A DNA stretch of 64,000 nucleotides from Nanobdellota archaeon (GTDB lineage Archaea; Nanobdellota; Nanobdellia; Parvarchaeales; Parvarchaeaceae): contig JAJZBD010000004.1 of NCBI GenBank assembly GCA_021799085.1, positions 7,973-71,972 of the forward strand, in the 5' to 3' direction. The notes beneath the pieces are model-generated. The model was not told the DNA's origin. It saw only the letters and a program-made list of their open reading frames with translations, and searched no databases. This document shows positions 1,910-5,460 of this stretch, one piece after another. Each line of letters begins with the position of its first letter. Positions within the stretch are counted from its first letter, which is position 1. The position numbers and the translations under genes are program-made.

Positions 1910-2419
1910 ATGGACGTTGAACAGTTTCTATTCTTCGAAGTGCTTATCGGCATAGTAATAGCCCTTACCATGTTTTTCCTTTTCTACAACAATTATTCAT
2001 CAATTTTCCCAGTAGGCTGCGATTCTGCAACGGCTCTGCTGCAAAACCAGTTTACAAGCGCAGAGTACGGGTATGCAAACAGGATGGAGGGCACGCCTCT
2101 TTTCAGATGCTACGATGAAAATGCCTGTTATAATGCGGCAACGGCTGAGCAAACGTGCATAAGACATTGGTGTTACTATGATCTTTGGACAAATGGACAG
2201 GGTAGCGAATCTGCAGTTCAAGCATGCATTGATAGCCCCCCTGCAAGTATAAATAAGTCCTGCAGTGTTGTATCCCCAACCAATACAGCCGACTTATTTA
2301 GTTGTTCGGAAAGCACTATTGTGGCCAATAACGCTACGGACATACAAAATTGCGCAATAAACGTTACAGCATGCATATCGGGGGACGGGCCTTACTGCCC
2401 AGCATGCGTAGCTCAGTGA
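1910..2419 (+). CDS. Membrane-anchored Cys-rich exported protein (169 aa, 12 Cys)
   Basis: N-terminal TM helix, Cys counted by hand, NxS/T sequons. Confidence 0.75.
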   Translation: MDVEQFLFFEVLIGIVIALTMFFLFYNNYSSIFPVGCDSATALLQNQFTSAEYGYANRMEGTPLFRCYDENACYNAATAEQTCIRHWCYYDLWTNGQGSESAVQACIDSPPASINKSCSVVSPTNTADLFSCSESTIVANNATDIQNCAINVTACISGDGPYCPACVAQ

Positions 2420-2420
2420 T

Positions 2421-2582
2421 ATGGATAAAAAAGGAAGCGTAGAATGGCGTCTTATCTGGATAATACTAGTTATAATAACTGCCCTTGCGGTCATAGGCCT
2501 TATTGTAATACTTTTTTACGCTGGCTCGCACAGCAGCTCCCCATTCTCATACTTCGGAAATCTGCTAGGAGGCGGTTCCTAA
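2421..2582 (+). CDS. Micro pilin-like protein (53 aa, MDKKG|SVEWRLIWIILV...), absent from ORF track
   Basis: Translated by hand; fills the gap between flanking genes exactly (1 nt after the 2419 stop, its stop abuts ATG 2583); KKG| plus hydrophobic helix. Confidence 0.8.
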   Translation: MDKKGSVEWRLIWIILVIITALAVIGLIVILFYAGSHSSSPFSYFGNLLGGGS

Positions 2583-3473
2583 ATGGAAGAGGGGATACTA
2601 TTGACGATAGTCTTCGTTATATTTGTTATAATAGCGGGGATAATACTTTCAGTCGTTTCCTTTTCCATAATAACCTCATTCGGCACCCTTAACTTTGGGT
2701 TAAGCTGCTTTACTGCGTTTACCCAGTACAAGATAGTCAACACCTTTTTAGCTCCATTTACAGGAGTAACATCTTTCTTCGGCTTTTCAAACGTAGTTGT
2801 AAGCCCAACCCAATCTGCACAGGTGCAAAAGGACTGCTTGCAGACTACAAACGTGAATGAAAAGGCAGCTGCAGACTTTGCATCCTCATTTTATACTGAA
2901 GCTTCATCTTGCTTCAGTTTATTTTCGGGGGGAAATGCGGGAATAGGCTCGCAGATTCTTTCTGCTAAAAATATAAATCAGATATTTAACTGCTACAAAG
3001 GCGCTTTGATAAGCCAAAGCAATAATGTAAATTATTCTGCCATAATAAGTTATATCGACAGCAATTACAACGGAAGCTACCCTCTGCAGATGGTATTCAT
3101 AACAAATGGAAGCAATGGAAATGCAGCATATATAAAGCCATCTGACAGGCTTTCAAATTCCAGTTACACAGTTACTTACTTTGGCTACCCTTCTGGTGGG
3201 ATTAAAAACTGTGAAGTAAGCTTCAAAGACCAATGCGAGTACACTGCTCAATACCAGCAGCCAGTAATAAATGACTTGTCCATATGTACATATTCAAATG
3301 AGACTACAAACCTAAGCAGGGAAACCGTAAGCTCTCTCAGCAACGGCAACCCCTCCTTAAATCTTGTAAATGAAAATAGCGGCTGCGATTATTATGTACC
3401 TTTATGTGGAAAACTCAGCAACTATATGGTATACAGTCAAAGTAGAGTATTTGTATGTATACCTGGCCAGTAA
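2583..3473 (+). CDS. Membrane-anchored Cys-rich exported protein (296 aa, 10 Cys)
   Basis: N-terminal TM helix, S/T/N-rich, apparent paralog of 3536..5011. Confidence 0.8.
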   Translation: MEEGILLTIVFVIFVIIAGIILSVVSFSIITSFGTLNFGLSCFTAFTQYKIVNTFLAPFTGVTSFFGFSNVVVSPTQSAQVQKDCLQTTNVNEKAAADFASSFYTEASSCFSLFSGGNAGIGSQILSAKNINQIFNCYKGALISQSNNVNYSAIISYIDSNYNGSYPLQMVFITNGSNGNAAYIKPSDRLSNSSYTVTYFGYPSGGIKNCEVSFKDQCEYTAQYQQPVINDLSICTYSNETTNLSRETVSSLSNGNPSLNLVNENSGCDYYVPLCGKLSNYMVYSQSRVFVCIPGQ

Positions 3474-3535
3474 TGCTTTTTACCTCAAATATAAACTTGG
3501 ATATTAATTTATTGCATAAAAACACTACTTAATTA

Positions 3536-5011
3536 ATGGCAGAGACACCTGGAGAGAGCTTCATATTCATAGTTTTGGCAGTAATATTCATAATAGTGAT
3601 AGTAGCTATTGCAGGTTATCTTCTTTTAGTTGGAGTCAACCTATCAAACAGCAGTATCTGCTATGTAAGCTCTGAATTCACTAATTTTTATTACAATGGC
3701 CTGTGTGTATCAAATTTCTTCTGTTTAAGCAGTACGCTTAAAGCTATTGGAATAGCGCCGCCTCTCTTCGGCTGCACAACTTCAACCTCTGGATATGGCC
3801 CTGGTTCCAAGCCTTCGCAGGTATTTTCAACCGTAGCAACTGATCTGACAAGCTGCTGGAACCAGTATGGCGCAAATCAAGGACTCACCGTACTAACTAA
3901 TTCGCCTGCAACCTGCTCAGTTATTGATGTCAATACCAACCAGAATATGACTATAAACAACCTTACCAATTACCTTGAAACAAATGCTTATACAACGGAG
4001 GTAAGCTGTCTTAACCATACGGCCGTTCAATCCTGCTCTGATCCGTTGACAAGCTCCAATTTAAACGGATACTCATGCGATTTAAATGACCCTAGTCTGT
4101 GCGAGGCCCAATCATTAAATTATTTCAATTGCAGAAGCCAATCTGGCTATACACCTTTTACACAAGGTTATACAACAAAGTATATACCTTTGGATGGATC
4201 AAAGCCGCCGACGGCTGCAATGAACCTTTCCAGCTATCTTTGCGAGGCATCACAGGGCTGCTCTTTCAACACTACTAAGGGAACTTGCACAACTCCAAGT
4301 GGGTCTACTTCTTCATGCACCGATCTGTACACCAACTTCTGTAATGGAAACAACTGCACTGTTGGTTATGATTCGATAACTGATTCGTATGAAGCCCCTT
4401 CCTCTTGCGTATTGACGGAACCTGTAAAAAGCACGTCAATAATTAATGAATCTTATGCAGATTATCTAAAGCCGGGCGATAATGTAATATTCAGCTATAA
4501 AAACGTGAGCAACCCCAGCCAAAGCGGATTTGTTCTACCAAACAGCAGCAAGTCGATAAACAAGGCGCAAATATATATAGTTTACCTCAATTCGCTGGTT
4601 GGAACAAGACTGCCGCCAAACTCAATAAGCCTGCCAAGTGAATGCGAGCCCGCTACTTTCCTTAACAATTATCCTACTGCAGGGATAGAATATGAATGTT
4701 CAAGGGCAATTGCATCTGGAATAGGAGCAAGGATTCTTGCGCCTTCAAACCCCGGATTAGTAGCTGGAGCTGTACTTGCGGGATTTGGAGCATCGGAATG
4801 CTTTAACAACACAATATGCAAAGACGATATTGCACCAAATGCATTAGTATACACAGGAAAGCTTGCTTATTCATCTTTATATGCTACAGGCTTAGAACAA
4901 TGTGCACAGTCTTTATTCTACTTCTTTACTTCTCTGCCTCAGGAAATAGGCATATCGAAGCCAAACTTTTTAGGGAGGAATTTAATTTATATATGCGCAG
5001 TAACAAAGTGA
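3536..5011 (+). CDS. Membrane-anchored Cys-rich exported protein (491 aa, 24 Cys)
   Basis: N-terminal TM helix, S/T/N-rich, many glycosylation sequons. Confidence 0.8.
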   Translation: MAETPGESFIFIVLAVIFIIVIVAIAGYLLLVGVNLSNSSICYVSSEFTNFYYNGLCVSNFFCLSSTLKAIGIAPPLFGCTTSTSGYGPGSKPSQVFSTVATDLTSCWNQYGANQGLTVLTNSPATCSVIDVNTNQNMTINNLTNYLETNAYTTEVSCLNHTAVQSCSDPLTSSNLNGYSCDLNDPSLCEAQSLNYFNCRSQSGYTPFTQGYTTKYIPLDGSKPPTAAMNLSSYLCEASQGCSFNTTKGTCTTPSGSTSSCTDLYTNFCNGNNCTVGYDSITDSYEAPSSCVLTEPVKSTSIINESYADYLKPGDNVIFSYKNVSNPSQSGFVLPNSSKSINKAQIYIVYLNSLVGTRLPPNSISLPSECEPATFLNNYPTAGIEYECSRAIASGIGARILAPSNPGLVAGAVLAGFGASECFNNTICKDDIAPNALVYTGKLAYSSLYATGLEQCAQSLFYFFTSLPQEIGISKPNFLGRNLIYICAVTK

Positions 5012-5460
5012 AAGGTACAAGTGCAGTAGAGTATTTCATAGTTGTTATACTGCTTATTTCATTTTTAGTGATAGGTGTCGTGATTGCTAGTTCTGTCTTC
5101 CATTTTGCTATTTTCCCATCGGGAGTAATAACAAGCGGGAGCGGCTCCCCAGTACCATGCTCCGCAAATGTGACAAACATAAGCACGCCTTCCAAACAGA
5201 ACACATTTAAAATAACAGTATCTGATGGCAGCCCTGGACTAATTTACAGGGTATTCGCAAGCAATACTGCTAAAAGTTCATCGTTATCGGTCATAGGCAA
5301 CTACACCGCGGGCATAGATTCCTTTTCAACTGATTTAACCATCGTAAATCCAAACATAAACACAGTCATTATAGGAAACACGTCAGGGAGCAATGTTTCC
5401 ATAGATGGGGTAAGGTACTCAGCAGGCGGAACTTGTGAAACTGAAATCTTCGGCAGTTAG
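4993..5460 (+). CDS. Type IV pilin-like protein (155 aa; start moved from 4816 to MRSNKVKG|TSAVEY)
   Basis: KG|T..VE(+5) class III signal; overlaps upstream gene end by 19 bp. Confidence 0.75.
   Translation: MRSNKVKGTSAVEYFIVVILLISFLVIGVVIASSVFHFAIFPSGVITSGSGSPVPCSANVTNISTPSKQNTFKITVSDGSPGLIYRVFASNTAKSSSLSVIGNYTAGIDSFSTDLTIVNPNINTVIIGNTSGSNVSIDGVRYSAGGTCETEIFGS

Follow-up and report, generated by a model that had tools for sequence, protein, structure and literature searches.

A conserved cassette of cysteine-rich, pilin-like genes in Candidatus Parvarchaeum and its probable relationship to a type IV filament machine

Archaeal type IV pilus (T4P) loci that encode large signal-peptide proteins with conserved cysteines, read as "adhesin or minor pilin", were described by Makarova, Koonin and Albers in 2016 (PMC4858521). 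The authors of that work were unable to assign cognate pilins to the nanoarchaeal ATPase. Dark-matter islands lying beside a T4P ATPase (spelled FliI there) and TadC in DPANN archaea were later read as diverse pilins by Makarova, Wolf and Koonin in 2019 (PMC6393860). A 2026 PLoS Genetics survey assigned system-1-type pilins to 1990 genomes of the Nanobdellati (DPANN); in this group the ATPase and the platform are adjacent and the pilins scattered, and the function was left open, including whether any structure forms (PMC13705601). DPANN archaea rely on host-cell contact, and according to cryo-electron tomography papers on Nanobdella and YN1 the genes for their contact structures are unidentified (PMC11104419, PMC11420986). 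Here we describe a cassette of five genes, P1 to P5, at positions 1910-5460 of a 64,000-nucleotide stretch of DNA (the window) from Candidatus Parvarchaeum, an acid-mine "ARMAN" nano-archaeon. An initial annotation had proposed that this cassette is a novel pilus-tip or adhesin operon. Because homologues of its genes sit directly behind an ATPase and a platform gene in three other lineages, P1-P5 are probably structural subunits of a type IV filament (T4F or TFF) machine, pilin-like and anchored in the membrane.

The window corresponds to contig C1:7973-71972 of the source genome, which is 0.91 Mb long and 93% complete. This genome is labelled G000 and its contigs C1, C2 and so on, and labels of the form G0xx and L0xx designate comparison genomes and contigs. 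Synteny within the genus was followed by tblastn against 14 Parvarchaeum genomes, and class-wide counts refer to 400 sampled genomes of the same class. Homologues of the cassette proteins carry the organism labels Candidatus Parvarchaeota archaeon, Candidatus Parvarchaeum sp. or Ca. Parvarchaeum acidophilus ARMAN-5 (BJBARM5_0310/0312), and all of them are annotated as hypothetical. A literature search found no mention of the BJBARM4 and BJBARM5 locus tags.

Gene organisation and linkage of homologues to a filament motor

The cassette consists of five open reading frames (ORFs) of the + strand, co-oriented and mostly abutting or overlapping as the initial annotation had stated. P1 (1910-2419) encodes a protein of 169 residues that starts with MDVEQFLFFEV and carries one N-terminal hydrophobic helix and 12 conserved cysteines. 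One nucleotide (nt) further downstream, P2 (2421-2582) encodes a 53-residue micro-pilin, MDKKG/SVEWRLIW... (a slash marks the predicted signal cleavage position), made of a helix and a short tail. P3 (2583-3473) follows without any spacer and encodes 296 residues with the signal MEEG/ILL and 10 invariant cysteines. After 62 nt comes P4 (3536-5011), whose 491-residue product starts with MAETPG/ESF and has 24 conserved cysteines and the largest ectodomain. The last gene, P5 (4993-5460), overlaps P4 by 19 nt and encodes a 155-residue pilin with the class III signal KVKG/TSAVEY and Glu at position +5. Comparison of orthologues placed the start of P5 at a conserved ATG at 4993, the 214-residue ORF from 4816 being an upstream extension. 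The spacers of 1 and 0 nt and the 19-nt overlap suggest that P1-P2-P3 and P4-P5 are translationally coupled units.

Homologues of these genes were found behind a motor in three other lineages. In G038, which belongs to another family of the class, a 798-residue T2SSE ATPase and a 671-residue polytopic platform protein are followed on one strand by a P1 homologue (tblastn E 2.7e-15), a 39-residue P2-like ORF, a P3 homologue (335 residues, hidden Markov model (HMM) E 9e-12), a P4 homologue, three micro-pilins and cysteine-rich MKAQG/LP pilins. Logan contig L036, which encodes the remote P4 member P0043, carries a 749-residue T2SSE ATPase (PF00437) and a 688-residue protein, then a P1-like protein of 144 residues (HMM E 1e-5), a P2-like protein of 50 residues (PSKG/KLEI), a P3-like protein of 323 residues (E 1.3e-9), a P4 of 460 residues and another micro-pilin. 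In G032, the ATPase and platform precede a 1092-residue cysteine-rich KG/ protein, two proteins with an N-terminal module common to P3 and P4, micro-pilins and many cysteine-containing pilins. G000 also encodes a long ATPase of the PilB/FlaI family (C12:128549-130789, 746 residues; T2SSE, PF00437). The end of its gene is overlapped by that of a 705-residue polytopic protein (C12:130768-132885), the putative PilC/TadC-like platform. Over their full lengths, the ATPase and platform of G038 are 52% and 38% identical to these two proteins. The synteny check proposed with the initial annotation therefore gave homologues of P1-P4 behind a motor in other lineages, besides a constant gene order within the genus (see below).

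The ATPase-platform pairing was observed in G000, G038, G032, L036, L039 and L040. On L038, the 490,885-bp contig of G033, the long ATPase is followed (10887-14322) by a 433-residue gene that is not a platform and whose start has no membrane or pilin-like features; the pairing is thus not universal. Homologues of the long ATPase are present in 390 of the 400 class genomes (45-54% identity, full length), so that nearly all of these reduced genomes have it as a core gene. The P3/P4 N-terminal module was detected in at least 89 of the 400. Linkage was counted in genomes outside the Parvarchaeum family for which the coordinates of both ATPase and module were listed (n = 27): in 22 of them the module follows the long ATPase at a distance of 2-9 kb on the same strand, and four of the other five have the two on different contigs.

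These data bear on the possibility that the five genes encode unrelated secreted or anchored surface (glyco)proteins, of the S-layer type or generic adhesins, whose resemblance to pilins is limited to the signal-anchor. Such proteins would agree with the lack of family matches, with the isolated position of the Parvarchaeum cassette between rpl15e and a helicase gene, and with the many other G000 proteins that begin with a "KG + hydrophobic helix", a common start in this genome. However, they would not be expected to keep the order P1-P2-P3-P4 directly behind an ATPase and a platform in three other lineages, nor to show the module-ATPase linkage just described; moreover, neither an S-layer fold nor an S-layer sequence match was found and glycosylation sequons are not enriched. 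The present data disfavour this explanation, and we regard it as very improbable.

Conservation, N-terminal signals and the P4 fold

Within the genus, the order P0 (an upstream pilin gene), L15e, P1-P5, helicase, GINS is kept in all 14 genomes, with identities of 29-97%. The even cysteine counts that had been made by hand for the three large proteins, 12 in P1, 10 in P3 and 24 in P4, turned out to be exact. All 10 cysteines of P3 are invariant across 15 of 15 orthologues, and every cysteine of P1 and P4 is retained in 15 or 16 of 16. Cysteine makes up 7.1% of P1, 3.4% of P3 and 4.9% of P4 as compared to a genome mean of 0.69%, placing the three proteins in the top 0.1-1.7% among genome ORFs of at least 150 residues. 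Ratios of nonsynonymous to synonymous substitution rates (dN/dS) against the closest relative were 0.018 for P1, 0.020 for P2, 0.030 for P4 and 0.067 for P5, with 0.049 for the helicase and 0.025 for L15e, dS being saturated (>1) and dN ranging from 0.034 to 0.081. For P2, dN is 0.034 and dS 1.73; the ratio shows that this 53-residue ORF is a real coding gene, and P2 is found in 14 of 14 genus loci at a length of 50-55 residues and 49-96% identity. P5 evolves fastest in the cassette (29-86% identity within the genus). The helicase, GINS and L15e genes next to the cassette evolve at a slow pace similar to that of P1-P4, so that a conserved structural core appears to fit these four better than a variable host-recognition protein.

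We then considered glycosylation. P1, P3 and P4 contain 4, 6 and 11-12 NxS/T sequons, respectively, and several of these are conserved. The sequons are as numerous as the initial annotation had noted; nonetheless, they do not exceed the expectation from composition-preserving shuffles (P4, 11 versus 9.2 ± 2.6; P3, 6 versus 5.6 ± 2.0), and the description of the products as glycoproteins was not borne out on this basis. The STT3 model of Pfam had no match in G000 and weak matches in 5 of 24 genus genomes. In G000, C2:14077-17034 (- strand) is the orthologue (82% identity) of a protein of about 1060 residues in which relatives show the weak STT3 (AglB) match, and its product may be a highly divergent oligosaccharyltransferase. 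Taken together, sequons and STT3 search neither support nor exclude glycosylation.

In a Kyte-Doolittle scan, P0 to P5 each showed a single hydrophobic segment, located at the N-terminus, in agreement with the proposal of three anchored proteins accompanied by a hidden micro-pilin and a terminal pilin. Class III signals have a charged residue at -2, G, A or S at -1 and a short leader directly before the hydrophobic H-domain (PMC4371748). The pattern of a charged -2 residue and Gly at -1 is present in P0 (MKG/Q), P2 (KKG/S, in KKG/SVEW) and P5 (VKG/T). P3 starts with ME[EQ]G/ and has a conserved Gly -1 with an acidic -2 (EEG/I); acidic -2 sites occur in Haloferax PilA (PMC4371748). P4 starts with MAET[PAG]G/E, also with a conserved Gly -1. 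Remote members of the families were informative. The P1 homologues P0072 and P0073 have the leaders NRKG/QSLSAE and SKRG/QTGTS, which align just before the Parvarchaeum start; remote P3 members begin with canonical MKKG/VSL (L036) or MKA/LAWEII (G038), and remote P4 members with canonical MKKKG/M, NKKG/E, MKRKA/L or MKG/L. Because distant members of all three carry canonical signals, the P1, P3 and P4 families are, as judged from their sequences, pilin-like in origin, and the Parvarchaeum versions would be derived and partly leaderless. The genome encodes an A24 prepilin peptidase of 277 residues (C3:6487-7320; PF01478, E 7.6e-14).

P3 and P4 are related to each other through their N-terminal part. 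Profiles built from the genus alone did not relate the two proteins (hhalign probability 7.6%), and paralogy was at first rejected on this basis. When a P3 alignment extended by remote members was compared to the P4 profile, the probability was 79% (E 1.6e-5), for the N-terminal module only, and cross-matches were obtained in addition. The module covers helix-C[WF]xx[FY]G...C...Y[IL]. By eye, the two proteins also share a C-terminal cysteine-bearing strand motif, [DN]K[ILV][ILV][IV]C[IV]. The P4 family is tiny, with 27 clusters among 1.84 billion representatives, and a single-sequence P4 search of eight complete genomes gave no match. Full-length P4 is limited to four families of the class, the first ~160 residues being the more widely distributed module.

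The structure of P4 was predicted using AlphaFold2 (AF2). A first run with 26 close homologues yielded an unusable model (predicted local distance difference test score (pLDDT) 51.9). With 35 sequences including remote members, pLDDT rose to 78.8 and the predicted template modelling score (pTM) was 0.59; residues 80-380 score 85-94, and helices are predicted at 5-35 and 39-55, the length of a pilin alpha-1. Foldseek found no match at E <1 for this model, either in the PDB (best E 2.0, TM-score ≤0.11) or in BFVD. Because of this, P4 as modelled is not recognisable as an enzyme, an S-layer protein, a lectin or a known pilin head. Folds of known enzymes or S-layer proteins, which the initial annotation had named as evidence to look for against its own proposal, were thus searched for by Foldseek with P4 and not found. 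The absence of a fold match also means that "adhesin" has no positive support: what stands of the pilus-tip or adhesin operon is a pilin-type cassette tied to a T4F machine, without an adhesin or GspK/PilX/PilY1 fold in the P4 model. Between the conserved Cys388 and Cys422 of P4, residues 396-422 (4721-4801 of the window; PGLVAGAVLAGFGAS) are hydrophobic and rich in Gly and Ala; AF2 confidence is low there and the stretch is too short for a transmembrane helix.

The P4 model is also relevant to the idea that the machine is a short transport pseudopilus, similar to a type II secretion system (T2SS) or to Com and serving secretion or DNA or nutrient uptake, with P1-P4 as its pseudopilin tip complex. 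A motor present in nearly all genomes (390/400) of a genome-reduced, host-dependent class suggests an essential, housekeeping-like role, and four to five unequal pilin-like genes recall GspH-I-J-K or ComGD-G, which are both sets of this kind. However, no structural similarity of the P4 model to GspK, GspI or GspJ was found by Foldseek, and the inspected loci contain no cassette-linked genes of secretin-like, DNA-binding or substrate proteins. The present data do not separate transport from adhesion, and the chances of the pseudopilus explanation appear slim to us.

Several observations weigh against P1-P5 being subunits of the long-ATPase machine. First, the signals of two Parvarchaeum proteins are abnormal. 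Translation of P1 begins inside the helix (MDVEQFLFFEV), leaving no leader. Its ATG is preceded by 11 codons, counted from the in-frame stop, among which there is no ATG, GTG or TTG and which coincide with a conserved element at 1873-1894 that resembles a B recognition element (BRE) and TATA box. P4 has an acidic leader with an uncharged -2 residue and thus lacks the charged -2 said to be required by archaeal prepilin peptidases. P1 and P4 may therefore escape processing altogether, or may not be built into a filament. Second, no curated pilin model matches: P0-P5 had no match in Pfam or NCBIfam at E up to 1, and a PDB sequence search with the cassette proteins was equally negative, in line with the initial annotation, which had recognised no family. 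Likewise, Foldseek identified no pilin, GspK/PilX-like, PilY1 or adhesin fold for P4. Third, the T2SSF match of the platform is weak and concerns different halves of the protein in G000 (E 0.084) and in G038 (E 0.04). Fourth, the cassette of Parvarchaeum adjoins no motor. In the Parvarchaeum family, module and long ATPase are always apart, on different contigs or separated by 121 kb in G207, and G000 possesses a second, ordinary T4P locus on C8 with an ATPase (C8:19078-20601, 507 residues) and its own RSQ/SALEYMMTYGW pilins. For these reasons, the assignment to a motor rests on the other lineages. Finally, no cassette was found behind the long ATPase in G076 or in the single-contig genomes of 490,885 bp and 605,887 bp, which by their sizes we take to be Nanoarchaeum equitans and Nanopusillus.

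The abnormal signals would be easier to understand if P1, P3 and P4 were fixed envelope proteins that use a pilin-type anchor but do not polymerise. They would then surround or flank the T4F machine as a static stem, collar or "bindosome-like" platform rich in disulfides, one version of which would be the cone or portal of a cell-contact organelle. A leaderless P1 and a non-canonical -2 residue in P4 favour uncleaved proteins retained in the membrane. The ectodomains are large (up to ~450 residues), the P4 fold is unmatched, and the slow evolution is that of core structure; moreover, surface-anchored class III signal proteins that do not form fibres exist, such as those of the Sulfolobus bindosome (PMC13705601). 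On the other hand, remote members of the families carry canonical cleavable signals, and the genes stand among micro-pilins and immediately follow those of the ATPase and platform, as minor pilins do. On balance, we consider a fixed envelope structure unlikely.

Neighbouring genes and other pilins of the genome

Upstream of rpl15e, P0 (892-1329, + strand) encodes a 145-residue pilin with a canonical class III signal, MKG/QESLE, having Gln at +1 and Glu at +5. Its N-terminus is conserved in 15 orthologues, two cysteines are invariant, and its position is kept in 14 of 14 genus loci; it is this synteny that ties P0 to the cassette. The element preceding P1 (1873-1894, + strand), ATAAAAACAATTTAAATTAATA, consists of a purine-rich BRE-like stretch and a TATA box (1883-1889) centred ~24 nt before the ATG, and is a candidate promoter. 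Alignment showed it to be near-identical in closer relatives within the genus, a TATA-like A/T box standing at the same place in distant ones. Its distance from the ATG would imply that the P1 mRNA is leaderless or has a very short leader. A second TATA-like box, TTAATTTATT (3504-3513, + strand), is located ~28 nt upstream of the P4 ATG; the A/T box is kept in 8 genus sequences, and this could be an internal promoter for P4.

Between the cassette and a minus-strand operon at 7592-9958 lie convergent genes that encode a Hef-like helicase and GINS51. This operon contains four chained micro-pilin genes, mp4 to mp1 (7592-8228, - strand; 46-57 residues), headed by X575 (8231-9958, - strand), which encodes a soluble, highly charged protein of 575 residues with no transmembrane segment and no family match. 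The micro-pilin/X575 block was detected in 13 of 14 genus loci. In G038 and L036, micro-pilins come straight after the P4 homologue; the mp1 profile matches the first of them in G038 (E 4e-7), and the N-terminus of P2 matches mp1-3 with hhalign probabilities of 87-94%. mp1-4 probably belong to the same system as P1-P5. Whereas micro-pilins occur in the motor-linked loci of G038, G032 and L036, no homologue of X575 was found there. For this reason X575 is not counted as a core part, and its membership in the system is uncertain.

Pilin genes were also noted elsewhere in G000. On C14 (6989-7342), a 117-residue pilin with 6 cysteines, MKGQG/LPVSTLII, resembles the MKAQG/LP and MKSQG/LP cysteine pilins that end the motor loci of G038 and G032, which makes it a candidate major subunit of the long-ATPase system. 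Near-identical N-termini, KRSQ/SALEYMMTYGWAILIIVIVAVILYSMGIF, characterise a pilin family present in several copies, which is found at the starts of contigs C4, C9 and C12, with further copies at C2:80813-81973, C5:107924, C8:22709-25441 and C12:99963. Three of the copies lie at the ends of contigs, and it is therefore probable that the assembly is broken by this repeat family. Giant cysteine-rich proteins of this 0.9-Mb genome are encoded at C5:110569-119724 (3051 residues, 61 cysteines), C7:67405-80943 (4512 residues, 64 cysteines) and C3:2140-6282 (1380 residues, 24 cysteines), which starts with KKG/QTVVEALMTYGW. These proteins have either an N-terminal basic residue followed by a hydrophobic helix or a clear class III-type signal.

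Proposed assembly and comparison with known systems

Overall, the best explanation of the data is that P1-P5, P0 and the micro-pilins are the "accessory" or "minor pilin" kit of the T4F machine that has the long ATPase and the platform. On this basis, a sequence of events can be proposed. The single N-terminal hydrophobic helix would insert each protein in the membrane with its ectodomain outside. Judging from the signals, the A24 prepilin peptidase would trim the proteins with Gly at -1, namely P2, P5, probably P3 and possibly P4, and P1, having no leader, would be synthesised in a "mature-like" form. The analogy to T4F systems suggests that the helices would pack with short pilins (P2, mp1-4 and perhaps the cysteine pilin of C14) on the platform protein, and that the ATPase would drive assembly. 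The disulfide-locked ectodomains of P1, P3 and P4 would stay folded in the acidic exterior, and could assemble at one filament end into a conserved complex, either a priming or cap complex or a basal collar. Of these, we tentatively prefer a priming or cap complex comparable to that of bacterial minor pilins, a reading by analogy that we hold as quite possible. Any role at the tip, in adhesion or in host recognition is a hypothesis.

A further step would be to regard the class-wide T4F machine as the host-contact apparatus itself, with P1-P4 and the micro-pilins as its extracellular working end. The machine could then be, for instance, the thin filament or tube of the Nanobdellota attachment organelles, in which the partly uncleaved, "leaderless" pilin-like proteins would make up a cap or stem that is fixed, locked by disulfides and new in its fold. 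The link between the cassette and these organelles is weak, and our estimate was lowered because the 490,885-bp and 605,887-bp genomes and G076 have no cassette behind the ATPase. We consider this interpretation doubtful.

The gain from this work is one of annotation and of a candidate list rather than of a new principle. A concrete conserved set, the P1, P2 and P3/P4 families with micro-pilins, is now attached to the long-ATPase motor found across the class, and the P3/P4 N-terminal module (at least 89/400 genomes) is defined. Processing sites that can be tested are predicted, and an odd variant is documented, that of pilin-like proteins with a lost or acidified leader peptide. Parvarchaeum is uncultivated, and the function put forward for these proteins is a prediction from genomic data.

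The cassette and its motor-linked homologues resemble archaeal T4F loci in having a VirB11/FlaI-type ATPase and a putative TadC-like platform followed by class III signal proteins of very unequal size. As in these loci and in the DPANN islands, the proteins include several conserved cysteines predicted to form disulfides, and the pilins are too divergent for family models. They differ in that the P1 and P3/P4 families are absent from Pfam and NCBIfam and were not found named in the cited papers, in the unmatched predicted fold of P4, in the leaderless P1 and the acidic P3 and P4 leaders of Parvarchaeum, and in a platform that is a single protein of ~700 residues with two weak T2SSF-like halves.

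Similarities to the Epd pilus of Methanococcus maripaludis (clade or system 1) are the KG/Q sites with Gln at +1 and Glu at +5 or +6, seen in P0 and mp1, and very short subunits of major-pilin size; the Epd pilus also needs several minor pilins for its assembly. Unlike the Epd system, the present one lacks a DUF2341 or PilY-like adhesin as well as a second platform gene, its 277-residue peptidase is assigned to the A24 family and not specifically to the EppA type, and P1, P3 and P4 are unrelated in sequence to EpdA-E. With the bacterial sets GspH-I-J-K and FimU-PilV-W-X with PilY1 (PMC7541494), the cassette shares four to five co-oriented, unequal pilin-like genes, one of them much larger, and, by analogy, the presumed role of starting the fibre and capping it. 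No similarity between them was found in sequence or, with the P4 model, by Foldseek, however, and in contrast to the PilY1-type arrangement the large component is here itself pilin-anchored instead of being a separate protein. Therefore, the novelty that had been claimed for this locus has to be tempered, because dark-matter pilin islands beside FlaI/TadC in DPANN archaea have already been described and the general idea is published (PMC6393860, PMC4858521, PMC13705601). The kind of system was already known; this work adds the specific families, statistics on their linkage, their degenerate signals and a predicted fold without match.

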